DNA from: Waddliaceae bacterium
Lineage (GTDB): Bacteria; Chlamydiota; Chlamydiia; Chlamydiales; SLFE01
NCBI GenBank assembly: GCA_963771045.1
Contig: CAVYRW010000004.1
Span: forward strand, 1,824,001-1,888,000
DNA length: 64,000 bases
Direction: 5' to 3'
Every line of letters begins with the position of its first letter. Within the stretch, counting starts at the first letter, position 1. The translations under genes and the position numbers were made by a program. The notes below the pieces were generated by a model that saw nothing but the letters and a program-made list of their open reading frames with translations, ran no database searches and was not told where the DNA came from. Below, in pieces: positions 19,633 through 60,295 of this stretch.

Positions 19633-19831
19633 AAAAACCTCCGTTTTGGATACATTAATAATGGATACCCCTATATAAAACAATAGATATTTTTCTTTTT
19701 AACAAAAAAAATTTAAAGTTTTTTTGTTAAAAAAAAACGATTCAACCCTTAGAAAGACTTTAATGTAAAATAGTTGAATATTTGAATGAGGAAAGGATTT
19801 AATGTATCTGAAAAATTAGCCTTCCTGCCCT

Positions 19832-24002: not shown

Positions 24003-24003
24003 G

Positions 24004-31643: not shown

Positions 31644-32837
31644 ATGGCTTTAACAATATTAACAATCAATGCCGGCTCTTCGAGCATCAAGGTGTCCCTT
31701 TTTCGTTTCAACCAGGGCGAGACGATGCTGGCGATTGGCCAGATCGACCGTATAGGACTCAAGAGCAGCAGCTTTGAGCTTGCCGACGGGAATGGCAACT
31801 GGCTCGTCAATGAAAAAGCCGCACTTGCCAATCACGATGAGGCCTACAAGAAGCTTTTCGGCTGGCTCGCTGAAAGCGGGTACGATCTCGACGGCGTCGG
31901 CCACAGAATTGTCCATGGCGGGCCGAACTACCGGTCGCATCAGCCCATCACGCCTGATCTTTTAGAGGAGCTCCATCGCGTTGTCTCTTACAGCCCCTTG
32001 CACCTGCCCCCTGAAATACTGGGAATCGAATATGTCGAGAAATTCTTTCCGAATGCGCCGCAAGTAGCGTGCTTTGATACAGCGTTTCATCAGATGCTGC
32101 CTAATGTCGCCAAATACTACGCCATTCCAAGGCGTTTTTCTGAAGAGGGAATTTTCAGGTACGGCTTCCACGGCATTTCCTATGAGTACATCATGGAAGA
32201 ACTTCAAGAAATCAGAAAAGGGAAAACAATTATCTGCCATCTCGGCAACGGCGCCAGCATGGCTGCCATCAAAAACAGCAGGTGCATTGACACAACCATG
32301 GGTTTTACTCCTGCCGAAGGGCTCGTTATGGGAACAAGGTCCGGCGATGTCGATCCGGGGCTGATCATCTTTTTAGCAGCCCACAAAAAAATGAATGCCG
32401 ACGACCTCAGAAATATGATCAACCATGAAAGCGGACTTAAAGGTCTTTCGGAACTGGGTTCCGATGTCCAAGATCTTTTGGAAGCGGAAGCCTCCAATAA
32501 CAAAGCCAAAGAGGCTTTGGATATTTTCTGCTACCGCGCAAAAAAATATATTGGAGCCCTTGCCGCCGCCCTTGGCGGCTTGAACACTTTGGTCTTTACC
32601 GCAGGAATCGGGGAAAACTCCCCTGAAATCCGGCAGCGCATTTGCAAAGGACTCGAATTTCTCGGCATCGAACTCGACAAAAAGGCCAACCGGGAAAACC
32701 GGGAAAAAATTTCAAAAAAATCCGGCCCTGTCAATGTGCAGGTGCTGCAAACAAACGAAGAATTAATGATCGCCCGCCACACGATGAATATCGTCGTTTA
32801 CGGGCAGGGAGCTTCCTACGAGTTAAGGAGAAAATAA
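31644..32837 (+). CDS. ackA: Acetate kinase
   Basis: [48 protein letters not shown]. Confidence 0.96.
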
Positions 32838-32838
32838 T

Positions 32839-35259
32839 ATGGCGTCAACTCAGATTCAAACAAAAGTCTTAAGCGACGAAGAACTGGATAAAATCGACCG
32901 CTACTTTCAGGCGGCGAATTATTTATCTGTCGGGCAAATTTATTTGCAAAGCAATCCTTTGCTGCGCGAGCCGCTGAAAGCCGAGGATATCAAGCCGAGG
33001 CTGCTCGGACACTTTGGGACATCGCCGGGCCTCAACCTGATCTATGCCCATCTCAATCACATTATCAACAAATACGACGCCAATATGATCTACATCACCG
33101 GCCCGGGGCATGGAGGCCCCGCACTGATCTCCAATGTATATATGGAAGGAACCTACTCCGAAGTTTATCCGCAGATTCCCGAAAACATCCACGGCATTGA
33201 TAAACTCTTCAGGCAATTTTCTACTCCGGGAGGCATCCCCAGCCACGTGAGCCCCGAAACTCCCGGATCGATTCACGAAGGGGGCGAGCTCGGCTACAGC
33301 CTTCTGCATGCTTTCGGCGCCGTTTTCGACAACCCCGACCTGATCGCCGCCTGCGTTGTGGGCGACGGTGAAGCGGAGACAGGGCCCTGCGAAGGAAGCT
33401 GGAAGGGGGTCAAGTTCTTAAATCCCTTAGCAGACGGGGCAGTCCTCCCCATCCTCCACTTAAACGGCTACAAAATCTCGGGACCGACAGTTTTGGCCCG
33501 CATCCCAGACGAAGAGCTCATCGACTATTTCAAAGGGCACGGCTACGAGCCTTGCATCGTTGAGGGCGACGATCCCAAAATTGTCCATCAAACATTTGCC
33601 GCCATTTTGGACAAATGCTACCAAGATATCCGGGCCATACAAAAAGATGTCAGGGAAAACGGGTTTTCCACCTGCCCCATTTGGCCGATGATAATTCTCC
33701 GCACACCGAAAGGATGGACAGGCCCGAAAGTCGTGGACGGCCTTCCCATTGAAGGAACCTTCCGCTCCCACCAGGTTCCCCTGGCTGGAGTCAAGGAAAA
33801 TCCCCAGCACTTAAAAATGCTCGAAGAATGGATGCTCTCCTACCATCCCGAGCAGCATTTCGACCAAGACGGCAGGTTGATTCAGGAGCTCAGAGACCTC
33901 GCCCCGAAAGGAGACCGCCGCATGGGCGCCAATCCGGTTGCCAACGGAGGAAAGCTTCTCGTTGATCTCGAGCTTCCCAACTGGGATGATTTTGCCATCG
34001 ACGTACCCGCTCCAGGACAAGTGAAACACGAAGCCACCCGCGTTCTGGGAGAATATCTTAGGGATGTTTTTCAGCTCAACGGAGACGAGAAGAACTTCCG
34101 CCTCTTTTGCCCCGATGAAACCAACTCCAACCGCCTCGGCGCTGTCTTCGACGTCACAGGCCGATGCTCGGCGGCAGAAATCATCGAAATCGACGACCAT
34201 GTCGCCCATGACGGGCGCGTGATGGAAGTGCTGAGCGAGCACTGCTGCCAGGGATGGCTTGAAGGCTACCTGCTGACAGGCCGCCACGGCATCTTCCCCA
34301 CTTACGAGGCGTTTGCCATGGTGATCGACTCAATGCTCAACCAACATGCCAAATGGCTCAAAACATGCCGCGAGATTCCTTGGCGCCACCCCATCGCCTC
34401 GCTCAACTATCTTCTGACCAGCCACGCCTGGAGAAACGATCACAACGGCTACAGCCACCAGGGACCCGGTTTTATCGATACCGTGATGAGCAAGAAAAGC
34501 TACGTCACAAGAATCTACCTTCCCCCCGATGCCAACTGCCTGCTCAGCGTTGCCGACCACTGCTTCAGAAGCCGCGATTATGTCAACGTGATCGTGGCGG
34601 GAAAACAGCCCCAATTTCAGTGGCTTGGCAAGGAAGAGGCGCGCGAGCACTGCTCAAGAGGCGCGTCCGTTTGGGAATTTGCCAGCAACGATCAGGGCAA
34701 TCCCGATGTGGTGATGGCCTCTGCCGGTGATGTGCCGACGCTTGAAGTGATGGCGGCCGTGTCCCTGCTAAGAGAACATCTGCCCGACATCCGCATCCGC
34801 GTCGTGAATGTCGTCGATCTGATGGTCCTTAAAAAACACAAGGAACATCCGCACGGCATGGACGAACTCTCCTTCAACGATCTGTTCACAAAAGACAAAC
34901 CTGTTGTTTTCGCATTCCACGGGTATCCGAGAGTGATCCACGACATTGTCCACGGAAGAGGCGTCCACGAACAATTCCATGTGCGCGGCTATATAGAAGA
35001 GGGAACGACAACGACCCCTTTCGATATGGTCGTCTTGAATGAGATGAGCCGCTTTCACCTGGCCATCGAAGCTCTGCACCGCATCCCGAGGCTTCAAGCG
35101 CAGGCAGGAGATGTTATCGAACTCTTCGAGACCAAGCTCTTTGAACACAGGGAATACATCACCCGCCACCTGCAGGACATGCCCGAAATCAGGAACTGGA
35201 GCTGGTCAGGAGAAAAAAGAGAACACAAAGAAAAGTGGGAAGTGGGACAGACAGATTAA
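32839..35259 (+). CDS. xfp: Phosphoketolase (X5P/F6P)
   Basis: [59 protein letters not shown]. Confidence 0.96.
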
Positions 35260-37781: not shown

Positions 37782-38786
37782 TTATACGGTTAGGGCTGTC
37801 AGAATGCGCCTGGGGCCGGTAAAAGGGGCCCTTCCATGCTGAGCCAGGATATTGTCGCACACCATCATATCTCCCCGCTGCCAGGGGAAAAAGACCGAAT
37901 GCTTATCCAGTACGTCCATCACATGATACATGTCGTTTCGGGAAATTTTGGAACCATCGGCGTATGTCGCTTCATGAACCAGCGTATTTTTGCGGCAGTA
38001 AAACATTTTCACGCCCATATAACGCCAAAAGCCGATAAATCTCGGATTGTAGTCATACAGGTGGATCTGGTTGAACCACACCTTTTCTTTCGTTTCGGGG
38101 TGGGCAATCCAGGTCGGCCCCACCTGGCTGATTTCCAGCCAGTCGTTGCTGTGCCATTTGAAATCGAAGTTTTTCTGCCGGCACCGCTTTTCGACTTCAG
38201 TCTTACTGTCCGTTTCGAAAACATCAATCCACGTCTTGTGCCCCTTTTGCACGCGGTTCATCATATCCATGACCATGCTTTTGTAGTAGTAGCGGGAGAT
38301 GTATTTCAGCCCTTTCTTTTCAAAACGCTCGCGCACCCCGCTGTCGACATCATTGTAAATTTTCCTCGCGTCGCCGATAAAGGTCTCCCCCCCTGTTTTG
38401 GGAGGAATATCGCAATAAAAACAAATATGTTTCGGGTAGTTTTCTTTGAGGAAGCTCATCTCGTTATGTAAAGGAATCGGAATTGCGGGCGGGGCTTCTG
38501 TCGATGTGTAGACTCTCCCTTTGACTTTAGTTCTGGGGCTGTCGCCGCCGACGTAATTGACTTTTTCTCCTAAGCCTAAATGATCGACAGTGCTGTTGAA
38601 TTCTTCGAGGCCGTCTATGGGACAATTTCGAAAAAGAACGCAGCCGTATTTTTTCAGACAATCGCGTATGAAAGGATTTTCTTCCTTGACTAGCTCCTCG
38701 AACTCTTCGCGCTTCAAGTTTTTGGAGGGCTCGAGAACAATGGGCATCTCGTGGTTTGTGATGAACCTGGTCTTGAATTCTGACAT
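37782..38786 (-). CDS. TauD/TfdA-family Fe(II)/2-oxoglutarate dioxygenase (SyrP-like)
   Basis: GCVLFR, VYTSTE, IPLHNEMS, HPETKEKVWFNQ, WQRGD...DN...HGRAPF; ATG 38786 with AGGAG RBS. Confidence 0.88.
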   Translation of the reverse strand: MSEFKTRFITNHEMPIVLEPSKNLKREEFEELVKEENPFIRDCLKKYGCVLFRNCPIDGLEEFNSTVDHLGLGEKVNYVGGDSPRTKVKGRVYTSTEAPPAIPIPLHNEMSFLKENYPKHICFYCDIPPKTGGETFIGDARKIYNDVDSGVRERFEKKGLKYISRYYYKSMVMDMMNRVQKGHKTWIDVFETDSKTEVEKRCRQKNFDFKWHSNDWLEISQVGPTWIAHPETKEKVWFNQIHLYDYNPRFIGFWRYMGVKMFYCRKNTLVHEATYADGSKISRNDMYHVMDVLDKHSVFFPWQRGDMMVCDNILAQHGRAPFTGPRRILTALTV

Positions 38787-38813
38787 AAGTTGACTCCTGT
38801 TTTGGATCACACA

Positions 38814-42677: not shown

Positions 42678-43625
42678 TCATCTGTCAAGAAATTTTTTAA
42701 TTCTCTTTAGCGAGTTTTGCAAAAAATCCTCCCCCCACTCTTCGTAAGGGCATTCAAGAGGAGAGGTTTCAGCTTGGAGAAGGCACCACAAATACCAGCG
42801 CACATCGGCAAGGATCGTCATTTGATAAAAATGGGAATACATTTCCATAGCGTCATTGCCCAAATAACCGCAAAAAAACCTTTTGAGGCCGCCATCGTCC
42901 AAAAATGCAGTGGAAGCAAGCGTTCCAAGATCGAAAAAAGGATCGCAATTGGCTGAATATTCCCAGTCGATCACCCAAATCCTTTTTCCGTCATTTAGCA
43001 GATTTTGCGGACTCAAATCCAGATGGCAGGGAACCGATTGGCACCTTTCATAACAACTACGCTTCATCTCTTCGAGAGCGGGTACGACCACCGCATTCCA
43101 TTTTTCGGGAAATTCACAGCCATAATATGCGGCCTTGCCGGAAAGATCGTCTATCAGGTCGAAAGGATTGACCGACTGGGGAAACGGGACCGGCAATTCG
43201 TGAATGCTTTTAATGACAGCAAGGCACCTTTCAAGAATTTCAGGATCATTGACATCAACTTCATTTTTTTTGTTCCGAATAAGGCGGCTCACAATAATCC
43301 CCATTTCCGGAAATGAGAGGATAATTTCCGGGGCGATATCATAGTCCGCCGCGATTGCCTGGCACAAAATTTCATTTTCGATATTAGATGACGCTGTTTC
43401 CCTGTTGTCTGCTTGTATGCGGATGAAATAACGGTGTTTGAAGCCAGAGTTGCCTTTATACTTCACGATATAGCCGTAATTCGTCGCCCCTTGAGCTGCC
43501 TGCTCAACTTTCGCGCCCTCGGCGCCCCATTCGGGAAGCCTCTCCAGAGCGAAGGCCAGTTTCTCCTCAACGGCGCCGAATAAACATTGGCAGCAAAATA
43601 AAAATAAGACAAAAAACTTTTGCAT
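42678..43625 (-). CDS. Choline/ethanolamine kinase (APH-like) family protein with signal peptide
   Basis: GATN, VPCHLDLSPQNLL, VIDWEYS, DPFFDLG; N-terminal MQKFFVLFLFCCQCLFG. Confidence 0.8.
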   Translation of the reverse strand: MQKFFVLFLFCCQCLFGAVEEKLAFALERLPEWGAEGAKVEQAAQGATNYGYIVKYKGNSGFKHRYFIRIQADNRETASSNIENEILCQAIAADYDIAPEIILSFPEMGIIVSRLIRNKKNEVDVNDPEILERCLAVIKSIHELPVPFPQSVNPFDLIDDLSGKAAYYGCEFPEKWNAVVVPALEEMKRSCYERCQSVPCHLDLSPQNLLNDGKRIWVIDWEYSANCDPFFDLGTLASTAFLDDGGLKRFFCGYLGNDAMEMYSHFYQMTILADVRWYLWCLLQAETSPLECPYEEWGEDFLQNSLKRIKKFLDR

Positions 43626-44202: not shown

Positions 44203-47200
44203 ATGACATCCGGCTCCTCTAAATCACACATCCCTGAAATTCAGCAAGATGTGGCAAAATACAACCTGATTATTCTGCTCAATCTTCAGGTTCAGCAATT
44301 TTTAAAAGTCGATTCCGACACACTATCGACTGGAGATCGACCGCAATTATTTGTTTTCAACTTCAAAGCCGGAGGATGTCACCCAAGCAATCCGGGCCTC
44401 TTTAGACATGGCCAAAAATCAGGAAGAGAGGGAATGGGGCGAACTTTTCAAAAAAGCCCGCTCACAGCTTGAAATTCTTCAATACAACACAAAAAACCGC
44501 CGCGGGTATCCCGAATTGATCCAGGAATTGATCGATCGGTACGCCCCGCAAAAAGAAAAACGTTTTCAGCAACATAATCAATCTTTACAGGAGAGTAGCA
44601 ATTTCATGGGAAACTCACAAAATACTAGCAGCAATAACACCCGTTACCTTCTCATAGGCGCCGTTGCCGCCTTTATTCTCATTGTCACTTTATATACCCG
44701 ATATGAGACATCGATCAGCTTTGAAAAACGGGGGCAATCTTCCGAAGAGATCGCCTATGGGGACGATTCCCCGCGAAGACAAAAGCATATTTGGTCAAAA
44801 GAGGCCCCCTCTCCAAGAGAAGTCAAAACCAAAGAAAAGCTATTGAATCTTCAATCTCTTCTGGAAGACCAAAACAACCAGCTGCACTCGATTGCCCGTG
44901 AAAAAGACGACAGGGAAATAGAACTGCAAGCTCTCAAAGAAGGCAATCATACTCTTCAAAATTCTTTGGCGGGCCTGATGCAAGAAGTGCAGTTTTTCCG
45001 TTCTCAAGAGGAAAAAGAGAATAAAGAAGATCAGAGAAGCGATGAACTGGGAAGGGAACTTGCAGAAGTTTATCGGAAACTCGAAAAATCGCAGCTCGAC
45101 AATGAAGTCGCTCAAGAAAAAATCGGCCAACTTAAAAATCAAATCGACAATTATGCAAACGCTTATGAAAAAGATGATTCCAAAGAGAGCATGATAGGAC
45201 AAATCAGCGAACTGGAAGCAAAAAACCTCGAACTCTCCAAAAACCTGACTTCCCTCCAAAATGAAAATCAAAATCTTCAGGAAATAGAAGAAAATTACCG
45301 CTCTTCACTAAATAGAATCGAAATGCTGCAAACTCAGGAAAGAAATACAAGAAGCGAGCTCAAAAACCTCGCAGACGACTACAAAGCGCAATCAAGTGAT
45401 TACTACACCTTAAAAAATGAACTGGCCGACACCTTTGCTTTTTTAAGCAACAGGGAATCAGGGGCGAAGGAACTAGCCTCCCTTCAGGAAACCCTTGCGA
45501 TGCAGGCAGCGTATATCGCCGAAGTCTCGTCTGCAAACAATGACTCTCATGATCTGGAAACCCTGGCAGCCGAATATGAAACGCTGCTGACTGAAAAAGA
45601 CCACCTCGAACTGGCGCTAGAGGATCGAGAGCAAACCATTCAGGATTTGAATCATGCCCTCGCCGCTGATTCGGAACTTGAAGAATACGAGAAGCTAAAA
45701 ACTGCTTATCAACAAAAAGAAGAAGAGCATCAAAACATCGTCATTCAATATGAAGAGATGTCTCAAGACTATGCCCAAATTAAACATCAGTTGAATCAAA
45801 AAATCGAAGATAGCGAGAAAATTGCTTCCGCTCTCAGAAGCAAACTGCAGGAGCAGGTTGAAGATTTTCAAGCTCAGCTCAAAAATCAGGAAACAATTCG
45901 AGAGGAGCTCGCGCAAAAAAACAAAAATTTGATCGAACTGAAAAAAGAAGTTAACTCAAAAAATCAAGATTTTTCCGCGATGGAAGAGATGATTCTGTTT
46001 ATGAAAGAGCAGAAAAGGGACTTGCAGCATCGGTTAGATGAAAAACTCGCAGATTTTAAGCTGCTGGAAGACGAAAAACAACAGCTGAGCAACAGGGTTG
46101 ACCAGTTAGCTCAGCACAGCGCAGACGATGAAGACAGCGCCGCCGGCCTCGCTGTCCTGGTCGATCTGCAACAAAACAAGTTGATGATGTCTGAACAAGC
46201 CATTTCTGCAATGGAAGAGCAAATAGCCGTTCTTGAGGGCGTTCTTGAAGAAAAAGATCAGAGCATGCTCGCTGCTCAGGAAGACTTTGATAACCTTATC
46301 AAGCAGATTGCAGACAAAGATGCTGCACTTGTCCAACTGAATGAACAGTTTCAAGCTTTTGAAGAAGAAAAGGAAAATCTGGGACATGAACTTGCCTTTC
46401 TCCAAACAAATCTCGATGAAAAAGAGCATGAGCTCGCCGCAGCCAAAAATGAACAAACCAGACTGCTGAACTTTATTGAAGACAGCAAACCGATCACAAT
46501 GAGTTTAAACGAGAAAATCCACGAGCAGCAGCAGGCAATTACCGAGTTCCAGACAACCCTCGAAGAGTACGAGCTAGCAGTCGCCGCAAACGATGAAGAG
46601 AAAAGCCGACTGATGCAGATCATCGAAGACAATAAAGCCATCGCCTCAAACCTCTCGGAGAAAATCTTCGAACTGCAGGATGAAAAGCAGGCCATGGCAG
46701 GCCAAGTCGCCGCTCTTGAAAATTCCCTAGAGCAACGCGAGCTAGCAGTCGCCGCAAACGATGAAGAGAAAAGCCGACTGATGCAGATCATCGAGGACAA
46801 TAAAGCTATCGCCTCAAACCTCTCGGAGAAAATCTTCGAACTGCAGGATGAAAAACAGGCTATGGCAGGCCAAGTCGCCGCTCTATGAAAATTCCCTAGA
46901 GCAACGCGAGCTAGCAGTCGCCGCAAACGATGAAGAGAAAAGCCGACTGATGCAGATCATCGAGGACAATAAAGCTATTGCCTCAAACCTCTCGGAGAAA
47001 ATCTTCGAACTGCAGGATGAAAAGCAGGCTATGGCAGGCCAAGGCCGCTGCAAACGATGAAGAGAAAAGCCGACTGATGCAGATCATCGAGGACAATAAA
47101 GTCATCGCCTCAAACCTCTCGGAGAAAATCTTCGAACTGCAGGATGAAAAGCAGGCTATAGCAGGCCAAGTCGCCGCTCTTGAAAACTCGCTAGAGCAAC

Positions 47201-48912
47201 GCGAGCTAGCAGTCGCTGCAAACGACGAAGAAAAAAGCCGACTGATGCAGATCATCGAGGACAATAAAGCCATCGCCTCAAACCTCACAGAAAAAATTAT
47301 CGAGCTGCAGGATGAAAAGCAGGCCGTGGCAAGCCAAGCCGCCGCTCTTGAAAACTCGCTAGAGCAACGCGAGCTAGCAGTCGCTGCAAACGATGAAGAA
47401 AAAAGCCGACTGATGCAGATCATCGAGGACAATAAAGTCATCGCCTCAAACCTCTCGGAGAAAATCCTCGAGCTGCAGGATGAAAAGCAGGCCATGGCAA
47501 GCCAAGCCGCCGCTCTTGAAAACTCGCTAGAGCAACGCGAGCAAGCAGTCGCTGCAAACGATGAAGAAAAAAGCCGACTGATGCAGATCATCGAGGACAA
47601 TAAAGTCATCGCCTCAAACCTCTCGGAGAAAATCCTCGAGCTGCAGGATGAAAAGCAGGCCATGGCAAGCCAAGCCGCCGCTCTTGAAAATTCCCTAAAG
47701 CAACACGAGCAAGCAGTCGCTGCAAACGATGAAGAAAAAAACCGACTGATGCAGATCATCGAGGACAATAAAGCCATCTCTGCCAACTTAAGCGAAAGAA
47801 TCCGTGAGCAGGAAAATGAAAAGCAGCAATTGAATCAAGAAATGGCATTGCTTAAAAACGAACTCGATGAAAAGGAGAAAACCTTGATTTCAACAGATGA
47901 AGAGTACAATAGACTCAGGCAAATTATGGAAGACAATAGAGCAATTATTCTAGGTCTAAATAAGAAAATTCAAGAACAGGAACTCGAAAAACAGGATTTA
48001 AGCTTTCAATTATCCTCTTTTGAACAAACCCTCTCGGAGAATCAGAAAAATTTTTCGTCTTATGACGAATCAATTCAGAAGATGAGCAAGGAAATCGCTT
48101 CTTTACAACAAATCGAGAGAGAATACGAACATTTTAAAAATGAAGCCATGAATCAGCAGAGCGAGCTGGCAAAATCATTTGAAAGCGCTAAATCAGGTAT
48201 AGCTTCTCTCGAAAATAAGAATGACCAACTGATGTCATCACTGGATGAAAAACAGCAAGCTTTGACATACTCTGCGTCAGAACTTCAGCAATTGCGCCAA
48301 TTGCTAGAAGATATCAAAGAAGACGACCAAATCAAATCGACCCAATTGGTTCAAGTGGAAGATGAACTGGCCAACACGCAAAAATTGCTCAAACAGCTGC
48401 GTAAATCGCATGAAACCAAGATCGCAGATTATCAGGACGATTTTCAAAAACTAGGCGAAGAACTGACAGCAAAAGAGAGTGAAAATAACGCCATGGTGAA
48501 AACTCTCAACAGACTCGCCCTCGACTATGAGCGCCTTAATTCCGAATTGGAAGAGCAGAAAAACCTAAGTGACTCTCTGGCTCAAAATCAAACCGGAAAA
48601 ATCAAGAACTATGAGGAGAAAATACAAACGTTAAATGACAAAATTAACGCCCTCACAGACCAGCTTGCTTCGTTATCAGACTCCCGTAGTGATATAGAGT
48701 CGTCAATGAAACAGACCATCGAGGAGTTAAGCGAGGAGAAAAGCGAGATAAGGGAGAAACTGAAGAGAGTTGCTTTCCAATTCAAGAATGTAAATGACAA
48801 ATTCAATCAGCAGAAGAAAATCTGGCAGAAAAAGGAAATGCTTATCAAGAAAATGAAAAAAAGCACATCAATGAACAGCGCGAAGCTAATTCATGACAGA
48901 AAAGGACTATAA
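44203..48912 (+). CDS. Very large membrane-anchored coiled-coil protein, frameshifted (may be two genes, second starting at ATG 44606)
   Basis: One TM (YLLIGAVAAFILIVTL) then about 1300 aa of E/Q/K/L heptads; shifts near 44350, 46885, 47044 and probably 48800 (alternative frame ends TGA 48896, overlapping the next ATG). Confidence 0.75.
46571..47790 (+). repeat. Intragenic tandem array, 168-bp (56-aa) unit, about 7.5 copies
   Basis: Unit starts at 46571, 46739, 46908, (47035), 47203, 47371, 47539, 47707; consensus ELAVAANDEEKSRLMQIIEDNKAIASNLSEKIFELQDEKQAMAGQVAALENSLEQR. Confidence 0.97.
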
Positions 48913-49550
48913 GAGCCTTTTGTGGCTTAATATACTGACAGCAATCGGTATGGCGACTTGCGTGATCACAGGGCAGATAAAAATTTCTCTCGAAATTTTT
49001 TCACTGCGCCTTCAATTTCCCGCTTCAAATCTCTTTTTTGCTTTCTTGACGTTCCCTGTTACAGACATCATTGCCGATATTTATGGAAAGAAAGAGGCCA
49101 ACCGAACGGTGTGGATTGGCTTTGCCAGCCAAATCATCGCTATCATGATTATCGAAATATGCATGCTCTTTCCTGGTGACTGCTCAAAGCTTGTCCCATT
49201 TCATATAGGAGGCTGGACAGTTCTGGTACGGATCGGCAATCGCTTACCTTGCGGCCCAATTTTGGGATGTCGCTTTCTTTCACTGGATTAAGGAGAACGT
49301 CACAGGCGATAAGCACCTTTGGATCAGAAACAATCTTTCGACCTGTTCTAGTCAGCTAATCAATAGCGCCCTATTCATTGCCATTGTCTTCGGGCTCGAA
49401 TCTTTGCCGATTATGCTGGCGTCATCAATCTTGGTAAAATGGGCTATCGCTCTTCTAGACACTCCCTTTGTCTACCTCGGGAAATATCTTCTTACAAGAG
49501 GGACTCCTATTCTCGAGTCATGCGCAATAACATTTGTTATTTGGTCTTAG
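48893..49550 (+). CDS. yhhQ: Queuosine-precursor transporter (YhhQ/VUT family), frameshifted
   Basis: FPVTDIIADIYGKKEA, shifted frame SAIAYLAAQFWD, HLWIRNNLSTCSSQLINS, LDTPFVY; 3' end approximate. Confidence 0.85.
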
Positions 49551-51724
49551 CCATTTTATTGAGGGATCTCAGATCGAGCTTTCCACTGCTAAGCAATGGG
49601 AGCTTGTCAATGGCATGGAATTGATCTTTTTTAGGGATAAACAGGTTGGGAAGCCCCTGACAGGAAAGTTTTTTAATCAGGTCTTGAATGTGCTTTTGAT
49701 CATAGGTGTGGAAAACCAAGATCTTCTCCCCCTTCTTTCTGTCGGGAGCGGAAGCGACGGCAAAAACTTGCGGCTCGATACCGGCTGCTGCGTGAAGAGC
49801 TTCCTCAATCTGCCAATGAGGGATCATTTCCCCACCGATTTTACTGAAGCGGGACAAGCGATCGGTAATGTGCAGATAGCCATCCTGATCAACAAAACCG
49901 ATATCCCCTGTCACATACCACCCCTCGTGTATCACTTCGCAGGTTAAATCTTCGCGGTTCAAATACCCTTTCATAACATTTGGCCCCTTAACTAAAACAA
50001 GGCCGGGAATTTCATAAGGGAGATCGCCTAGGGTTTCGGGATCGACCGCTTTGACGAACACCCCGGGAAGAGGAGGACCGACCGTACCAGGTATAAAACC
50101 GCTAGGGCAGGTCCTATTGCTGCGGCAATCCAAGATATTCGTCGAGACGACAGGGCTGCACTCTGATGTGCCAAATCCTTCAATGGGAATAATATTAAAT
50201 TTTTCCTGAAAAGCATCGGCCAAAATCCGCGGCATCCGTTCAGCTCCAGTGAGAACGCAGCGGACGAAACGAAATTTCGAGGGCGGGTATTTTTTTCATG
50301 TAGCCTCTTAGAAAAGTCGGCGTGCTGATGACGATGCTAATTTTCCACCGCTCAAGAAGATCGCCGATTTTCGCATAATCGAGAGGGTTGGGATGTAAGA
50401 ATCATCGTCAAGTCATAGTTAAGTCCCAGCCAAAGAAGCATGTAGCCGAAAGCATGGAAAAAGGGAAGGATGGCCAAAGCGGAGAGACGGCAGCCATCGG
50501 TTAGGATCACCTGCGAGATAGCGTCGGCATTGGAGCCAACATTAAAGTGGCTTAAGACCACGCCTTTCGGCTCGCCCGTCGATCCGCTGGTAAAAATGAC
50601 TGTCAGTGTATCCTCTGAGGTGATTTTCCGTTTTGCTCCGCACATTTTCTCTATAAGTCTTATCGGAGCAAAAAGCGCCAAAAGCAAAGCTATTATTCGG
50701 TCTTTCGAAACTGATTGTTTTCCGAATGTCTTCAAGATAAAGTATTGTCACATGATCGGGCAAGGCGAGGTTCATCTTTGCCAGAAATTGCCGGCTTGTC
50801 ACCAATGTTTTAATATCCGCTTGTTTGATGGCCGAAACAATGCCCTCATAACCTGTCGAGAAATTCAAATTGATGACGGCCCTTCCGGAAAATGTGACTG
50901 CCGCGTTAGCTAGAACTGAGCCGCAGCACTGGGGCAAAAGAACACCGACATAATCTTGATCCTTCCAATAGGGATTTAATTTGCAGGCAAGGGCAATGCT
51001 CCCGATCAGAGTTTTCAGATAGGAAACTTTCGGCGATGTTTCGTCTCCCATGATTTTTCTGAATGCTTTGCTGCGGGCATTGTGGACAAATCCATGATGA
51101 ACGGGCCTGGCAGCTGCCCTTCTCCCCATCCAAATTTCAAAGCCCAGCTTCTGGATCTCTTCGACAATTTCAGCAGGATACATCCTACCGCAGGCAGGCT
51201 TGCCAAAAGAGATGGTCACGGGATGGGGAAATTTTTTTGCGACCAGCCGTCCGAGCTTTTCGTCAAAGAGACCTCCCCACAAATTGTCCACATAAAGCGG
51301 AATGACCGGACAGTCCCGCCCTTTCATTATGAGCTCCAGGCTGCGCCGAAATGAAAGCATGAAGCCCAAATTCCCTTCGGTCTCTTCAGGATAGAGGCAA
51401 ACGACTTTTCCCTCGTCAAGCAGAGCGGCCCCGGCCTGAAGCTCCTTGAGCAAAATAGCGGGATGTTCGGTCGTCGTCACAGGGAATAGCGTTTAGAAGC
51501 TCGGCAAAAGGACGCATCCACCATTTTCTGCAAAGATGCCGGGGTATGAGAATATAAACTTCGCGGCCGATTTTTTGAACAAGAAAAAGCATGTCAATCA
51601 AAGAAAGGCGGTTGGCCGCAAGAAGCGCTGCACCCTTTTTTGGGATATGGTGTTCTCCGAAAACCCTGACACGGTAAATCGTTCGGGATAAAATAAAAAA
51701 TAGAATACCGAATAATCTTTTCAT
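49537..51724 (-). CDS. aas: Aas-like protein (PlsC-like domain + acyl-ACP synthetase), frameshifted
   Basis: VIFTSGSTGEPKGV, LPFFHAFG, EGFGTSECSP, WYVTGD, DRLSRFSKIGGEM, SGK; N-terminal GAALLAANRLSLID. Confidence 0.88.
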
Positions 51725-51784
51725 AGCTCCATTATCTACAAAAATGGAATAATTATGGACATAAATCGCTAAAATAGGAATATT

Positions 51785-52674
51785 GTGACAGAGTATGCGA
51801 ATACCACCAACTTTATGCGGAGTACTGGCTTTATTCTTTTGGTCCTTAACGGCCACAGTACAGTAGAGCTCTATGAAATACCCACTTTCCAAATGCTTTT
51901 TTTTAATTTTTCCGCAGGGTTTGCCATCTCCTGTATTTGGGCGACTTTTCTGAAGCAGTGGACAAGTATTCTCAATCTGCCGTTTAGCGTTTGGGCTGTA
52001 GGAATCCTCGGCCTCTTTTGCAATGTATCGGCCTATACAACAGCCTTTAAACTGGCTCCTGCCGCCCAGGTGGACCTCATCTACTATCTTTGGCCTCTTT
52101 TTACAATCTGCCTAACGCAAATACTTCAGCCGCTATTTTCCGGAAGTTATATCGCCGGCGCTCTTTTAGGGTTTGCAGGAGTTTTTTTTCTGATATTCAA
52201 CGAACCAAAGACAAGCAACTCTTTCAGGAAAGCCTTATGGGCTATGGCTATGCGATTTTTGCCGCTCTCAGCTGGACCGGCTATATTATCTTTTCCAGAA
52301 GGCATCCCAATGCTCCCCCGTATACAATTGGGCTTTGCTGCGGAATCGCCGCCATTTTATCGCTGATTTGCCACCGCAATTTCGAATCCTCCGTGTCAAT
52401 GAATCCGAGCCACTGGGGACTCTTATTATTTTTAGGAAGCTGCATTACAGGAACGTCCTTCGCTCTTTGGGATTATGGCGTCAAAAAGGGAAATGTCCGT
52501 TTGCTCGGCGTTCTCTCTTATTTTACCCCAATCTGGTCGATCCTTTTCCTTGTGATGAGAAACCGCGCGGAATTTTCTCTCTACCTTATCGTTTCCACTT
52601 TGCTTGTCGTGATTGGAAGCTCATTTACCCTTATTTACGAATATAAAAGATCTTGGAAAAGGCTCAAAATATGA
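51785..52674 (+). CDS. EamA/DMT-family transporter, frameshifted
   Basis: LAPAAQVDLIYYLWP, FALWDYGVKKGN, LSYFTP; shift near 52210; stop overlaps eutD start (ATGA). Confidence 0.82.
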
Positions 52675-53831
52675 TCAGTTTAAGGAATCTAACTTTCACA
52701 CCGCAGGAATATGAACGAAGAGTCGAATCGCTCAGGCGCAGAATGGCTAAAAGAAATTTGGACGCTGTCATGCTGAGCGATCCGGCAAACATCGCCTATT
52801 TAACAGGATATTTCACCACCGGCTACGGAACTTTTCAGTCTTTAATCATTACCTCTCAGCGCGCCTGGATGGTGACCCGTCTTTTGGAGGAGTCCAATGT
52901 CATCACCAGAACCTGGATCGACCTCACCCGCCCCTATCTCGATACCGAAGATCCTCTTGAAGTGGTGAAAAAATCATTCAAAGAATTTAATTTTCAAGGA
53001 AAAACTCTCGGCATTGAATCCCAATGTTTTTTCCTTCCCATGCATTTTCAGGAAAAAATAAAGGATTGCCTAAGACGAATATACGATTGAAGACTGCACA
53101 GGTATTGTAGAAGAAGGGGAGGATTATCAAATCCGAACAGGAAATCGGTTTGATGGAGGAAATCGCCGAGATTACGGAAAAGTCTATGCTCGCAGGACTA
53201 AAAGCGGTCAAAGCCGGCGTCAATGAAAACGATATTTCGGCCGCTATCCACCACGCTATGTACAGTTCGGGAGGCGAGTTTCCCGCTGTGGCACCTTACA
53301 TAACATCAGGTCCAAGAACTCTGATCGGCCATGCCACATGGGAGGGAAGAAGCATAAAAAAGGGCGACTGCGTTTTCATCGAGCTGGCGGGATGCAAAAA
53401 ACGGTATCACACCGCCATGATGCGCACCCTTTTTATCGGGGATCCGCCAAAAGAATTACTCGAAGCCGAAAAGATGGTCAAGAGGGCGCTAAACGAGTGC
53501 AAAAAAGCGATGAAACCCGGGGTCCCCATCGAAAATATTGACTCGATTAGCCGGGACATTATCGCCGACAATACAATCGGCGCCACGCAGATCACACGGT
53601 CGGGCTATTCAATCGGCATCGCATTCGCCCCGAGCTGGGATGAGGGGCATATCCTGAGTTTCAAGCAAGGGGAAAAGACTCCGATTCAGGAAAATATGAC
53701 ATTCCACCTAATCCCCTGGCTGCAGCTTCCGAAACTCTTTATGGTGATGGGCCTTTCCGAAACCGTCCATGTAACCCCTGAAGGAGCCAAAAGCTTTTTC
53801 AATCTGGAGCCCGGGTCTGATAATCAAATAG
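52671..53831 (+). CDS. eutD: Ectoine hydrolase (EutD/DoeA, M24 fold), frameshifted
   Basis: FTPQEYERR, DPANIAYLTGY, HATW, ELAGCKKRYH, RSGYSIG..PSW, MTFHL; neighbours eutB/C/E; shifts near 53075 and 53815. Confidence 0.78.
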
Positions 53832-54805
53832 TTTTTCCCAACCTTTTCCCGCGGGCTTTTTTATAAGCAAGATTGGCGATCGCCGTATCCTGGGCCCCTG
53901 TTCCCGTCAAATCGCAAAGGGTCATATCTTTAGGATTTCTCTTCAGTTACGCCGTTTACCAGAAATGATCTCCCCGATTTCCCGGATAGGAGTTGAATCA
54001 TTGATGATATTTTGCCGATAAGCGTGATGCAATTCTCCAAGCCGAAGGCTTTGAGTCTTGCCTATCGCAGACGATATGTTGAACTTTGCTGAAGACTTCG
54101 GTATGAAGCTCCTGCTTATCTTCGGCGTCCGCTCCCATTGATGTGATATGCAGGCCGGGCCGGATCCATTCCGATTTGATATAGGGTTTTTTCGAAGGGG
54201 TCGAGGTAATGAGAATATCCGAAGTTTCGACCAATTTCCGAAGATCGTCCTCTCTTTGTCCTTTAACCCCCAGCTCTTCGGACATCTTGTGCGCAAATTT
54301 TTCCGAATGCTCGGGCTCTAGGCTGTAAACATATAACCTATCGAAGGGACGGACCAGCTTCAAAGCGCGCAATTGATACCCTGCCTGCTTGCCGGCTCCA
54401 ACGATCCCTACGGTTTTCGCTTCAGAATTTGCCAGGTACTTTGATGCGACTGCCCCCGCGATTCCCGTTCTGATATCTGTCAGGTAGCCATTGTCGAGAA
54501 GAAGAGCTTCGGGCATGCCGGTTTTTGAGTTGAAAAGAACCATGAGGCCGCTGCCGCTGTCAAGGCCGATTTTCGGATTGTCGAAAAATCCTGTCGACAT
54601 TTTAACGGCAAAATAGTCAAACCCTTTGATATAGGCCGATTTGACATCGATCTCTCCGTTGTTTTCCCGTCACATCAAGCCGCTGCACAGGCGGCATGAC
54701 CACTTCATCTTGCGCCAAAGAGGAAAACGCATTTTCAATTTCTTTCAGCTCCTCTTCCCCAATAAAGACGCATTCTTTCAAGTCTTTTTCCGTCAATATC
54801 AACAT
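53824..54805 (-). CDS. eutC: Ectoine utilization protein EutC (ornithine cyclodeaminase/mu-crystallin family), frameshifted
   Basis: STGFFDNPKIGL, LLDNGYLTDIRT, GAGKQA, MGADAEDKQE, CDLTGTGAQDTAIA; TAATG coupling to eutB. Confidence 0.88.
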
Positions 54806-55772
54806 TATCTTACCACCTCCTGAAATGATTTCATATCTACATTCCGTCCGCTTAAAATAAAGGCTGCAGGACCTGCAGCAGCGGGGAGCTTGCCCGCAAG
54901 CTGGGCAGCAATGCCGACGGCTGCCGCTCCTTCCAAAACGAAACGGAGATGTAAATAGACAAACTTCAAAGCCTGCCTGATTTCCGCTTCCGACACTAAG
55001 ATCAGATCGTCGACATATTTTTTTGTCAGCCGAAACGTGTGCCGATTATCCAGACCCGATCCCCCCTTTCAAACTGTCGGCCAAAGTCTTGAGTTCATCA
55101 ACCTCTACCGGGCGGCCCTTTTTTCAAACTTTCATACATGGCGGCCCCGCTTTCCATTGACACGCCGATAACGCGAATATTGCGGATTGCTTTCTTTGAG
55201 CGCCAGGGCGATGCCCGCTATCAGTCCCGCCTCCTGAAACAGGGACGATCACAGAACCGATTTCAGGGCACTCTTTTAGAATCTCCAGGCCGATCGTCCC
55301 CTGCCCGCTGATCACAAAAGGATCGTCGAAGGGAGGAACCAAAACCCTGTTTTCCTCTTCAACCGTCCGGAGGGCAGCGGCATATGCTTCATCGTATGAG
55401 TTCCCAGTAATGCTCAGTTCCGCGCCAAGGTCGCGAATAGCCTCCACTTTATTTTCAGGCACATTCTTCGATAAAAATACCCGGCAGGAAATGCCCAGTT
55501 TTTTCGCTAGCAAAAGAAACAGCCCTGCCATGATTGCCTGTCGAGACAGCGACGACGCCCCGCTTCTTTTCCTCTGCAGTCATGTTCAGCAGGCGGCTGG
55601 CGGCTCCCCGAACCTTGAAAGAACCTGTTTGCTGGCAGACCTCCAGTTTTAAAAGCGCCTGTTTCCCGATTATTTTGGATAAAGGAGCCGATTCGACAAG
55701 CGGCGTCCTTTGAGCTAAAGAATAGATGCTTTCCCCGGCGGCCTGGATATCCGAAAGAGCCATGTCTTGCAT
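54805..55772 (-). CDS. eutB: Hydroxyectoine utilization dehydratase EutB (PLP, threonine dehydratase family), frameshifted
   Basis: KLEVCQQTGSFKVRGA, VSTGNHGRAV, PPFDDPFVISGQGT, EGAAAVG, LSGRNVD. Confidence 0.87.
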
Positions 55773-55853
55773 TTCTTTTTCCTTTAAGGTTGTTAAAAAT
55801 TCCCATTCTAAACATGATGAAAGCTTTATATCAATGCATGAAGGAGAAAAAAA

Positions 55854-57064
55854 ATGAGCGGCCGGCATCATCCCAAAAAAGGAACGCTTTCGATCTGGGG
55901 AGGCGAACATCGAAAAACGGAAAATTGGCAAAGGGCCACTCAAGTTCCCATCGTTAACAGTGTATCGTTCGGATATGACGATCTGGACAACTGGCTTGAC
56001 GTGGCTTTGGGAAAAGCCGAGGGGCACATCTACAGCCGCAACACAAATCCGACTGTCCACGTCTTTGAAGAGAAGGTGCGCGAGCTGGAAAATGGCGAAG
56101 CCGCGACAAGCTTCTCGACCGGGATGGCCGCTATCAGCAACACCCTCTACACCCTCCTTTCCCCGGGAGACCGCATCGTCTCTGTCAAGGATACCTATGG
56201 AGGGACAAATAAAATCTTCAGCGAGTTTCTCCCAAAAATCCATGTCGATGTCGTCTTTGTGTGACACAACCGATCATGAGAAAATCGAAAAAGAGACCGC
56301 TCGCGGGTGCAAAGTCCTCTATATGGAAAGTCCCTACAAACCCGACACTCAAAGTCATGGACTTGAAAAGATTAATCGAAGCCGGCAAGAAAGCCGGCGC
56401 AACCACCATAGTCGACAACACCTTCGCCACTCCGATTAACCAAAATCCCCTCTCTTTGGGCGCCGACCTTGTGCTTCACAGCGCCACCAAATTTCTCGGC
56501 GGCCATGCCGATGCCCTCGGCGGAGTCGTTTGCGGCCCGAAACAACTTATCCATCAAATCTATCATTACCGCGAAATCAACGGCGCGACGCTCGATCCCC
56601 ACGCCGCCTATCTCTTGCTGCGGGGAATGAAAACACTGCATTTGAGAATCCGGCAGCAAAACGAAAGCGCTTTGGCAATTGCCGAATTTCTGGAAAACCA
56701 TAAAGCCGTTGAGAGGGTATTCTATCCCGGCCTAAAGAGCCACCCCGGCCATGAGATCGCCAAAAAGCAGATGTCGGGCTTCGGTGGAATGCTCAGCTTC
56801 CAACTGAAAGGAGGATTCGATTCCGTGAAGAGATTCATCCTCAAGCTGAAATATTGCCACGCCGCCGCCAATCTTGGCGCCGTAGAAACCGTCGTAGGTC
56901 CTCCAAGAACGACCAGCCATGTCGAGTGCACCGCGGAAGAGAGAAAGGCGCTGGGAATTCCCGAAAGCCTGATACGCTATTCAACAGGCATCGAAGATCT
57001 CGAAGATCTGATCGCCGATCTCAAACAGGCTCTTATGTCGATACAAGAAGAGGCAGTGATTTAG
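55854..57064 (+). CDS. Cystathionine gamma-lyase/synthase family PLP enzyme, frameshifted
   Basis: YSRNTNPT, FSTGMAAI, TYGGT, VDNTFATP, HSATKFLGGH, ANLGAVET, IRYSTGIE; shifts near 56255 and 56333. Confidence 0.9.
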
Positions 57065-57065
57065 A

Positions 57066-58080
57066 ATGACGATAACGCAAGATATTTCAACTCCTGTGTG
57101 GACCGACTGGGATCCGCAGTTAGAAGGCAAGCAGCTCACTTATTTAAAAATCCCTTATTCTCGGGACAATTCCGCCTGGGGCTCCATTTGGATTCCTCTT
57201 GTTCAATTCAAAAGAGGAAAAGGGACAACCGTGCTCATGACCGGAGGCATCCACGGAGGAGAGTACGAAGGACCGATCTCTTTGATGAGACTGGTTCGCG
57301 AACTTGATATCGATGATGTGGCAGGGCGTGTCATCATCCTTCCCTGCCTCAATTTGCCGGCGGTCCAGGCCGGAACAAGGGTGTCCCCTGTCGACGGTAG
57401 AGACTTAAATCGCTGCTTCCCGGGACGAAATAACGGTACCGTGACAGAAGTGATCGCCCACTACATTCATGATGTGATTCTCCCCGAAGCCGATGCTATC
57501 ATCGACCTGCATGCAGGGGGCCAGTCGCTCAGCCTTGTTCCCTACATCAGCATGCATTATTTGGAAAACGAAATGCAATCCAGGCAAACCCATAAAGCTT
57601 TGTCTGCTTTCAATGCGCCCTATCAGGTGATTATGAAAGAGTTCAGCGGCGACGGCCTCATCGATTACGCCGCCGAAAAGATGGGGAAAATATTTCCTCT
57701 GCGCCGAACTGGGAGGTGCGGGAATCATTTCCCCGTATAATGTGGCCATTACCGATCAGGGCATTCGAAATATCCTGAAACATTTCCAAGTGATTCCCGG
57801 CAAGATCGAAAAATTGTCCGTGCCTTCCGTGCAGCTTTATGTCGATTCCCAGGATCAATACATTTATTCACACGATTCCGGTATTTTCGAGCCCTTCAAA
57901 CTTCTTGGCGACACCATTGAGAAAGGTGAAATCGTTGGGCAGATTCACGACATTCAGGATATCGGCAAAACACCTATACCTTACTCCTCGTCTTGCGACG
58001 GCATCCTGATGGGCATGCGCGCTCCCGGGCTGACTGACAGAGGGGATTGCCTGAGCCTCATCGCAAAGAAAGAGGAATGA
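57066..58080 (+). CDS. eutE: N-alpha-acetyl-L-2,4-diaminobutyrate deacetylase (EutE/DoeB), frameshifted
   Basis: SRDNSAWGSIWIP, GGIHGGEYEGP, TRVSPVDGRDLNRCFPG, DLHAGG; shift near 57690. Confidence 0.88.
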
Positions 58081-59007
58081 ACATGTCGATAAAAACTGCC
58101 GCCGCATTTGCCCCCGCCACTGTTGCGAATCTCGCCTGCGGCTTCGATGTTCTGGGGTTGGCTTTGGAGTCGATCGGCGACATCGTAAAAGTAAAAACAA
58201 AAGACACTGCCGGCATCTCCATAAAAAACATCGAAGGAGATGGCGGAAAGCTGCCCCGGGAGGCGGAAAAAAATACAGCCGGGATTGCGGCAGGCGAATA
58301 TCTGAAGAAATTGAATAAAGAAATCGGAATTGAAATCGAGATCCAAAAAGGCATTCCCCTCTGCAGCGGCCTGGGATCCAGCGCCGCCAGCGCGGCGGCG
58401 GCCGTCTATGCTGCAAATGAACTTTTCGGCTCCTCCTTGCCGAAAGAAGAACTTCTCGTCTTCGCTCTGGAGGCGGAAAAAACAGTGGCAGGAGCCCCTC
58501 ATGCCGACAATGCCGCTCCTTGCCTTATTCGGCGGGGTGACTCTGATCCGCGGCAGTGAAATTTTAAGCCTTCCCTTTCCCGAAAACCTGATCGTCATCA
58601 TTGCCCATCCCGAATATGAGCTCAATACAAGAGACAGCAGAAACGTTCTCCCGGAAAACATCCCTCTTCAAGACGCTGCAAAACAATGGAGCCACCTGGG
58701 AAGTTTAATCGTCGGCTTCTGCATGCAAAACACCGCATTGATTGGCCGCTCTCTAAAAGATCATATTATCGAGACCCATAGGGGCCCCCTGATCCCGGGA
58801 TTCGACGCTGTTAAAAATGCTGCTCTCGACGCCGGAGCCCTTGGATGCTCCATAGCGGGAGCGGGCCCCTCGCTCTTTGCCATGTCCGACTCCCCTCAAA
58901 CCGCTCGAAAAGTCGGCGAAGCGATGAGGAGCGCCTTTAAAACAAAGGGATACCCTTGCAATATCATACAATCTAAAATCAGCAAAACAGGATGCAGGCC
59001 GCTATGA
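58077..59007 (+). CDS. thrB: Homoserine kinase, frameshifted
   Basis: APATVANLACGFDVLG, GIPLCSGLGSSAASA, HADNAAP, SIAGAGPS; ATGA overlap with eutE. Confidence 0.93.
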
Positions 59008-60295
59008 AGTTTTTCAGCACAAACGATGCTTCGAACCGGATTTCTCTCAAAGAAGCTGTGCTGCATGCCTATCCCGAAGATAAGGGACTCTATCTGCCGA
59101 CCGAAATTCCCCGCCTGCCGAAAGAATTTTTTGACAATATCTCCAATCTTTCCTTACAGGAAATTTCGTTCCAGGCAGCCAAAGCCCTGATCGGGGAAGC
59201 CCTTGCCAAGCAGCAATTGGAAGAGATGATCAACGAGGCCATCAATTTCGATGCGCCTTTGATTCCCCTAACGGATTGCGCATTCGATTTTGGAACTGTT
59301 CCATGGCCCCACCCTGGCCTTCAAGGATTTTGGAGCCCGCTTCATGGCCCGCCTCATGAGCGCCTATACTCGGGAAGACAAGGAGAAGCTCACCATCCTT
59401 GTCGCTACTTCGGGAGATACCGGCAGCGCTGTCGCCCAAGGCTTTTATCAGGTGCCCGGCATCGAGGTGATGGTCTTTTATCCACAGGGACAAGTGAGTG
59501 AAATTCAAGAAAAGCAGTTCACAACATTGGGAAAAAATATCACCGCATTCGAGGTGAAAGGGACTTTCGACGACTGCCAGGCGCTCGTTAAGGAAGCCTT
59601 CTTAAACCTTGAGCTCAACAAACTCAGAGGTCTCACTTCCGCCAACTCGATAAACATCGCCAGGCTGATTCCTCAGACATTTTATTATTTTTACGCCTAC
59701 GCCAGGCTCAAGAAAAAAACGATGTCGTCTTTTCCATTCCTAGCGGAAATTTCGGCAACTTAACCGCCGGCCTGATCGCGAAAAAGATGGGACTGCCTGT
59801 CTCGAAATTTATCGCTGCCACAAATATCAATGATGTCGTCCCCAAGTACTTGAAAACAGGCCAATTCGAACCCGGGCTGTCCAAGCATACCCTCTCCAAT
59901 GCCATGGATGTAGGCAATCCCAGCAACTTCGCCCGCATGAAAAGCCTCTACCGCTCCCACAATATGTCAGGCGACATCTATGGAGCCTCGTTTACCGATG
60001 AGCAAACGCGCGAGTGCATCAAAAAAGTCTACGGCGAAACCGGATACATTCTCGATCCTCACGGCGCCATCGGATACCTCGGTTTGCAGCAGTATCAAAA
60101 ATCCCATCCATGCTCCGGCATTGTCCTCGAAACCGCCCACCCCGCCAAGTTCCTCGATATCGTCGAACCCATCATCCACGAAAAAATCCCCATCCCCGAG
60201 CGCCTTGCAGAAACTATGACCCAAGAAAAAAAACCGTCATAATCGACCCCTCCATCGAAGCCATTTTAAGCTGGCTCGGAGCCCCCCAATCCTGA
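59004..60295 (+). CDS. thrC: Threonine synthase, frameshifted
   Basis: ELFHGPTLAFKDFG, ATSGDTGSAV, SANSINIARL, PSGNFGN, NAMDVGNPSN, ETAHPAKF; ATGA overlap with thrB. Confidence 0.94.

Follow-up and report, generated by a model that had tools for sequence, protein, structure and literature searches.

Bacterial degradation of ectoine has been described for Halomonas elongata (DoeABCD) and for Ruegeria pomeroyi and Sinorhizobium meliloti (EutABCDE-Ssd-Atf). Here, we describe a related locus at positions 51795–60295 of a 64,000 nucleotide window, the whole stretch of DNA analysed, from the genome of a Waddliaceae bacterium. The locus contains homologues of EutD, EutE, EutB and EutC, which are common to the described systems, together with a PLP (pyridoxal 5′-phosphate)-dependent lyase of the PRK08249 family and ThrB-ThrC. 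In known systems, EutD orthologues open ectoine to N-acetyl-2,4-diaminobutyrate (N-acetyl-DABA) and EutE takes off the α-acetyl group (PMC3187862; PMC7192451; PMC5924519). These two steps, to 2,4-diaminobutyrate (DABA), are proposed to be alike here (PMC3187862; PMC5924519). The methylotroph-type DoeA, which is the best family match of the window EutD, is reported to give the α isomer only (PMC7192451). A role in processing hydroxyectoine is proposed for EutB and EutC, in the source papers as here (PMC13188858; PMC5924519). The lower part of the pathway differs. Atf/DoeD, EutA, EnuR and an Ehu binding protein were not found in the chlamydial genome, and the PRK08249 lyase and thrB-thrC are present instead. 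The end product would be threonine rather than aspartate, and the phylum is the Chlamydiae.

A second related system is the Bacillales cluster, described as pucR-eutBCD-atf, abgB-thrA-adh, for which function is proposed only (PMC13188858, 2026). This cluster shares eutB, eutC and eutD with the chlamydial locus, and a homoserine-using enzyme follows in both. From the order of the genes in one Priestia plasmid and nine genome loci, we infer that the place of 'atf' is held by a PRK08249 lyase (66–70% identity). In the Bacillales, EutE is exchanged for an M20 amidohydrolase, and oxidation of homoserine, via Hom and an aldehyde dehydrogenase, would lead to aspartate. Conversely, the chlamydial locus keeps EutE and homoserine would be phosphorylated on the way to threonine. 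The words 'Chlamydi', 'lyase', 'threonine' and 'cystathionine' do not occur in the available main text of PMC13188858, whose figures or supplements may name the gene otherwise. The canavanine γ-lyase pathway of Pseudomonas canavaninivorans and rhizobia uses an enzyme with the same Cys/Met PLP fold, and a figure legend places threonine synthase among its neighbours (PMC9533460). There, the leaving group is hydroxyguanidine and Gdx and HD genes are adjacent, whereas the chlamydial locus has neither Gdx nor HD. Trypanosoma brucei, which is also host-associated, has only homoserine kinase and threonine synthase, the enzymes of the final two steps to threonine, but uses free homoserine or acyl-homoserine lactones and has no linked ectoine genes (PMC4460637). 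We did not find a lyase converting DABA to homoserine, or ectoine genes joined to thrBC, in the literature searched, which covered few subscription papers; GapMind 2026 contained no ectoine or diaminobutyrate passage. This genome is not alone in its proposed homoserine branch of ectoine catabolism; the coupling to thrB-thrC is the new part.

The eight clustered genes are listed below. Family identities are from profile searches and hold both for the fragments in the window and for intact copies in a sister genome of the same genus (G001), which served as the reference for intact proteins.

51795–52674, plus strand: EamA/YddG-type drug/metabolite transporter, candidate importer; two frameshifts in the window, intact at 290 amino acids in G001; NF050091 209.5 bits (cut-off 300).
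52671–53831, plus strand: eutD/doeA ectoine hydrolase homologue of the methylotroph DoeA_2 type; three frameshifts, intact at 385 amino acids in G001 and in a third genome, G002.
53824–54805, minus strand: eutC cyclodeaminase/imine-reductase homologue; four frameshifts, 325 amino acids in G001.
54805–55772, minus strand: eutB hydroxyectoine-utilisation dehydratase; five frameshifts, about 320 amino acids in G001.
55773–55853, no strand: divergent eutB/lyase intergenic region, 81 bp.
55854–57064, plus strand: PLP γ-lyase of the uncharacterised PRK08249 clade, the proposed enzyme for DABA (or N-γ-acetyl-DABA) to homoserine; two frameshifts, 402 amino acids in G001.
57066–58080, plus strand: eutE/doeB N-α-acetyl-DABA deacetylase homologue; one frameshift, 337 amino acids in G001.
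58077–59007, plus strand: thrB homoserine kinase; one frameshift, intact in G001; NF002288 367 bits (cut-off 194).
59004–60295, plus strand: thrC threonine synthase; three frameshifts, intact in G001; TIGR00260 296 bits (cut-off 167).

The genes are tightly arranged. An ATGA overlap joins eamA to eutD (52671–52674), and eutB and eutC meet at a TAATG on the minus strand (54807–54803). The eutC and eutD genes converge and share 8 bp at their 3′ ends. Starting at 55772 and 55854, respectively, eutB and the lyase gene diverge across the 81 bp region. The lyase stop codon, TAG (57062–57064), is followed by one base and then the eutE ATG at 57066. ATGA overlaps also connect eutE to thrB (58077–58080, with another in-frame ATG at 58083) and thrB to thrC (59004–59007). 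A sequence-only reading of the window had described this divergent unit and its junctions, and all could be read back as claimed. The ATGA overlaps and the one nucleotide gap are kept in G001 at 94% identity. In G001, the 81 bp region has one σ70-like sequence (10/12) directed towards eutB, which is a consensus match only; scans of the locus for terminators and promoters gave results at chance level.

We consider it probable, from gene content and by analogy with canavanine γ-lyase, that the eight genes salvage ectoine and hydroxyectoine via N-acetyl-DABA, DABA and homoserine to threonine. In this scheme, the cluster would be co-transcribed and EamA would import host-derived ectoine or hydroxyectoine, with the direction of transport a prediction. 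EutD would open the ring to N-acetyl-DABA and EutE would release DABA from the N-α-acetyl isomer, as their orthologues are known to do. The lyase would form a PLP aldimine with DABA and eliminate the γ-amine, and addition of water to the resulting vinylglycine ketimine would yield homoserine. N-γ-acetyl-DABA may be a second lyase substrate, with loss of acetamide, while N-α-acetyl-DABA would be unable to bind PLP. ThrB and ThrC would then produce threonine by their known chemistry, and EutB and EutC may strip the hydroxyl from the hydroxyectoine series. The precedent is canavanine γ-lyase, which forms homoserine by γ-elimination and water addition, with HD and aldehyde dehydrogenase acting downstream (PMC9533460). 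The sequence-only reading had likewise led the C4 skeleton of ectoine through homoserine to threonine. The gene-context part of that claim stands on the thrA slot, the lack of Hom and DoeD, the Bacillota Hom linkage and the canavanine γ-lyase precedent; the chemistry is a prediction.

The first evidence is that no homoserine dehydrogenase was found. The window genome is 90.6% complete. PF00742 (Hom) had no match in it or in five family members (G001–G005), with 14/14 controls positive. With Escherichia coli and chlamydial ThrA as tblastn queries, the sole match was to the kinase domain of a LysC encoded as a separate protein, and a weak PF03447 match, tried as a hidden Hom, was DXR on inspection of its sequence. 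The absence of thrA/hom and doeD noted for the window holds across the searched genome. The lysC and asd genes are present outside the cluster. We did not find MetA, MetX, MetH, IlvC, IlvD, IlvE or LtaE in the window genome. Since MetA, MetX, IlvC, IlvD, IlvE and LtaE were not found, ThrB is, as judged from the gene complement, the only recognised user of homoserine. Of 151 genomes of the order, 150 were scored; 12 of these carry thrB and 11 carry Hom. Outside this genus, each of the ten genomes with thrB encodes Hom in a frame of thrA length, and none was found in the window genome or G001; thrBC normally follow thrA. The order is thrA-thrB-thrC in four and thrA-asd-thrB-thrC in six of these; nine of the operons lie on one contig and one, of the type with asd, is split over two. 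The proteins encoded are related to those of the window (ThrB 42–49%, ThrC 54–59% identity), and thrA stands where this genus, alone among the scored genomes, has lyase-eutE. Comparative genomics thus supports lyase-eutE filling the thrA slot, because all ten other thrB-bearing genomes have thrA. As to the earlier claim that the lyase and EutE replace thrA, the slot is as stated; the homoserine-forming step would fall to the lyase, with EutE supplying DABA only. In a quick tree, ThrB of this genus lies outside other chlamydial ThrB groups, so loss of thrA in place is just one possible history. Two further ThrB relatives have 73% and 69% identity.

We also considered the other cluster proteins. 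EutD matched NF038259 best (489 bits, cut-off 575), TIGR02993 with 192 bits (cut-off 613) and Protein Data Bank (PDB) entry 6TWK with an E value of 9e-38. Residues H220, E237, R244-Y245-H246, R309 and H345 are invariant with other EutD homologues, and the N-terminal loop is unlike that of H. elongata-type sequences. EutE had a single family match, TIGR02994 (335.7 bits, cut-off 402.7), and matched PDB 6TWM (E 1e-79). EutB exceeded its cut-off (NF005680, 434.7 against 413 bits). EutC was above the cut-off in NF006141/PRK08291 (427.6 against 408 bits) and below it in TIGR02992 (385 against 472). An EamA-domain protein imports S-adenosylmethionine in Chlamydia trachomatis, a precedent for an import role (PMC3104491). 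Just two class III aminotransferases are encoded in the window genome; one is HemL and the other, ArgD/AstC-like, has 24% identity to S. meliloti Atf. No DoeD/Atf orthologue was found in it, and G001 and G002 had no Atf match at E ≤ 1e-90. DoeC/Ssd is missing from the cluster; an unlinked succinic semialdehyde dehydrogenase-like gene shares 40% identity with S. meliloti Ssd. The genome check suggested alongside the sequence-only reading thus returned lysC and asd, neither hom nor doeD, and for doeC this unlinked relative.

The lyase belongs to NF006097/PRK08249 (711.7 bits, cut-off 600). In a quick tree of 76 sequences, from which short or partial open reading frames were excluded, it fell within a clade of 60 (SH-aLRT 99). 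The nearest solved structures are methionine γ-lyases, at ~40% identity. The AlphaFold model (pLDDT 74.5, residues 336–357 poor) has the methionine γ-lyase fold only and is too weak for pocket analysis. Residues Y60, R62, Y115, D187, K212 and R374, which we take to be PLP residues, are invariant. Clade-specific invariant residues include W47, R239, E240 and E357. Three other assignments were rejected. For methionine γ-lyase, the score in TIGR01328 is below the cut-off (382 against 549.7 bits), and the lyase has YGGT instead of YGCT and so lacks the Cys, presumably an active-site residue of methionine γ-lyase; C115/C116 mutants appear in PDB titles. For MetB/CGL, a Glu before the SLG motif is, we assume, the distal-amine binder. 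This position is E in MetB-type sequences and A338 in 59/60 of the clade, and the genome has a separate MetB/CGL-type gene at C4:1728861. The lyase is also not a canavanine γ-lyase orthologue. It has 35% identity to a rhizobial copy (picked by its Gdx, HD and ABC neighbours, accession unconfirmed), sits on a separate long branch and has no Gdx-HD-aldehyde dehydrogenase-ABC neighbours.

We then compared neighbourhoods of the lyase in other genomes. The scan took the best 80 loci from 14 of 64 parts of the GTDB genomes, giving 67 clade members and 13 more distant loci; the counts are not a statistical test and related genomes are not independent. Ectoine catabolic genes were present in 25/67 clade loci and in 0/13 of the more distant loci. 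An Atf orthologue was found in none of the 25 ectoine-linked loci (best 26%). Across the whole genome, the best Atf match was ≤43% in all 24 searched of these 25, compared with 60–100% identity for 257 of 338 plasmid matches. In one genome (G733), a 43% match lay roughly 22 kb from the lyase. In 10/67 loci, Hom lies downstream of the lyase at a distance of ≤2 kb and an aldehyde dehydrogenase comes next; an annotated Priestia plasmid has the same order. Judged by gene content, the lyase takes the place of DoeD, because ectoine-linked lyase loci lack Atf, and two unrelated lineages place different homoserine-using enzymes behind it, Hom and aldehyde dehydrogenase in the Bacillota and thrBC here. 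Among the genomes searched, the synteny survey confined the eutE-thrB-thrC link to this genus and found the association of lyase and ectoine genes to be wider. Among 300 randomly sampled scored Gammaproteobacteria, three had the lyase, too few to assess mutual exclusion with DoeD.

Other arrangements were also seen. Klebsiella variicola plasmid NZ_CP078147 (L103) carries ehuABCD, an EnuR-like regulator, doeA, doeB and the lyase (63%), with doeC and doeD absent from the 17 kb stretch. At 60–80% identity, the lyase is in at least 35 plasmid records, mostly Klebsiella among the matches listed. In L031, L038, L041, L052 and L087, the lyase adjoins eutD and the locus has no match to four deacetylase queries, which fits N-γ-acetyl-DABA as a direct lyase substrate. 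In L030, L034, L039 and L042, the lyase accompanies an ArgE/DapE-type deacylase in the absence of eutD; Hom is six genes off in L030 and L034. In L037, from the Chloroflexota, thrB and a ThrC-like gene lie three to four genes away and do not form a co-oriented unit.

On balance, this context slightly favours a general function for the PRK08249 clade as a DABA γ-deaminase that adds water to give homoserine. This would be a second, transaminase-free lower route for ectoine in many phyla, rewired in this chlamydial genus to supply threonine from a host osmolyte, independently of de novo synthesis, and the first use of ectoine in the Chlamydiae. Several points weigh against the salvage of ectoine to threonine by this cluster. 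EutD and EutE both score below curated cut-offs. EhuB, EhuD, BCCT, EnuR and EutA had no tblastn match in the window genome, in a search that did not include TRAP importers. Genome completeness (90.6%) bounds the absence of Hom and DoeD. The Hom-linked lyase loci are all Bacillota, a single lineage, and the thrBC link is in one genus only (two full copies, one fragmented). The low identity to the rhizobial canavanine γ-lyase (35%), and position outside its branch, mean that the lyase would work like that enzyme without being a member of the group. Ammonia as a leaving group in this PLP family is a prediction. In H. elongata, growth on ectoine persists in the absence of doeD (PMC3187862), so other transaminases can stand in. 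In 42 genomes, the lyase locus has no eut gene. EutD had no match in 37 of these, many of them incomplete metagenome-assembled genomes; five have EutD elsewhere, compared to 0/13 controls. The clade is thus not ectoine-specific, because 37/67 lyase genomes show no EutD. Finally, in three Chloroflexota loci (L033, L037 and L053) the lyase shares an apparent operon with panB and a class I aminotransferase, which hints at a 2-oxo acid product, and ThrB and ThrC could salvage host homoserine.

The last two points are central to an alternative that we regard as unlikely. The lyase would be an ordinary γ-eliminase, converting DABA to 2-oxobutanoate and two ammonia for carbon and nitrogen. ThrBC would separately salvage host homoserine, and their adjacency would stem from an insertion by which thrA was displaced. 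This PLP family normally yields 2-oxobutanoate, which canavanine γ-lyase makes as a side product at <5% (PMC9533460), and T. brucei does salvage homoserine with only the last two enzymes (PMC4460637). The panB-aminotransferase pairing (3/67 loci) and the many lyase genomes without EutD are also accommodated. However, the alternative leaves Hom and aldehyde dehydrogenase directly behind the lyase in 10/67 loci unexplained, IlvC, IlvD and IlvE, for isoleucine from 2-oxobutanoate, were not found, and the ATGA and one nucleotide couplings are kept at 94% identity. Less likely still is that the homoserine to threonine logic is right and the import is another host compound: a related cyclic amidine, an N-acyl-DABA or a γ-substituted 2-aminobutyrate. 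The sub-threshold scores of EutD (489 against 575 bits) and EutE (336 against 403), the divergent N-terminal loop of EutD, the failure to find an ectoine-specific binding protein or EnuR, and the frequency of the lyase without EutD all suit such a substrate. Conversely, EutB exceeds its family cut-off and EutC that of PRK08291, four eut genes occur together, the nearest EutD/EutE relatives (43–52%) adjoin EhuB-like proteins (L023, L148), and the matching sequencing runs are salt-marsh and soil metagenomes.

All eight genes are broken in the window, which the sequence-only reading had only implied with the term 'frame-corrected'. Compared to G001, there are 21 net frameshift sites, 17 with an extra base and four with a missing base. 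Such a number would be expected of a decaying pseudogene cluster, with only the G001 copy able to function, but we consider decay very improbable. Single extra bases account for 17/21 sites. Contigs assembled from short reads (four public runs from three studies, labelled soil and salt marsh), with 2–4 runs represented, lack the extra base at 8/8 such sites among the matches listed. Single contigs span eutB-lyase, lyase-eutE and eutE-thrB. There was no RNA run among the matching runs listed. Codon changes between the window genome and G001 are mainly synonymous (250, compared to 114 non-synonymous). The aas gene (window 49537–51892) and a distant omcB-like gene (L167, C4:512390–515602) are likewise split by frameshifts, and base quality is poor in patches of the assembly. 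Most likely, therefore, the frameshifts in the window are assembly errors, because G001 carries the whole stretch at 94% identity with eight intact frames, the short-read contigs lack the extra bases, other genes are split likewise and the changes are mostly synonymous.

Divergence between the two copies is uneven. Synonymous changes affect 3–8% of codons in eamA, eutD, eutC, eutB and the lyase gene, 11% in eutE and 15–20% in thrC and thrB; the flanks are 87–90% identical (L013). This unevenness suggests that the eut half was recently exchanged between lineages. G002 (82% complete, 280 contigs) has eamA-eutD and the 3′ parts of eutC and thrC, and the lyase, eutE and thrB were not found in it. 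Because these pieces sit at or near contig ends, G002 neither confirms nor breaks the lyase-eutE-thrB linkage.

The cluster is limited to one genus within the genomes searched. EutD occurs in 2/400 scored genomes of the phylum (the window genome and G001), plus G002, and the lyase clade in 2/151 genomes of the order. A metagenome scan with EutE gave nine loci, three of them EutE-like, and thrB, thrC and the lyase were in none. A search for EctC, which lacked a positive control, gave 0/15 matches. Genomic context strongly suggests a genus-restricted way of breaking down ectoine, which probably involves a new enzyme reaction. If correct, a widespread PLP family that lacks annotation, found also on Klebsiella and Priestia plasmids, would gain a reaction, and the gene read as 'atf' in Gram-positive ectoine clusters would be corrected. 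The aspartate-family amino acids would also have a new point of entry, one that avoids aspartate kinase, Asd and Hom. Ectoine catabolism would extend to an intracellular phylum, and the nutrition of chlamydiae would be linked to osmoadaptation of the host; ectoine is made or imported by some halophilic protists (PMC5924519). The coupling to thrBC would make the lyase amenable to growth selection in a laboratory threonine auxotroph.

The organism had been called a probable endosymbiont, which is reasonable for an environmental chlamydia, with intracellular life inferred from the phylum. Among its best PyrH matches, those from named organisms belong to the Chlamydiae; the omcB-like match is below its family cut-off. 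Relief of threonine auxotrophy, also suggested earlier, is possible. However, tdh-kbl is present at C4:532335–534540 (58% and 64% identity to E. coli). Threonine may thus serve for protein or be an intermediate, via Tdh-Kbl, to glycine and acetyl-CoA. The breakdown of threonine predates the cluster, because tdh is common to 4/5 family members. Malate synthase, isocitrate lyase, acetate kinase and phosphoketolase genes at window positions 22404–25284 and 31644–35259 may provide a way to use acetate released by EutE. Elsewhere, the genome encodes a short aspartate kinase (257 amino acids), the ArgD/AstC-like aminotransferase and AstD (L001, L006, L010). Within the window are cytochrome P450, TauD-type dioxygenase and choline kinase-like genes (18055–19683, 37782–38810 and 42678–43625, respectively). 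A coiled-coil open reading frame (46978–48912) contains near-identical tandem units of ~42 amino acids, the copy number of which may differ in G001, judging by several repeat matches there.

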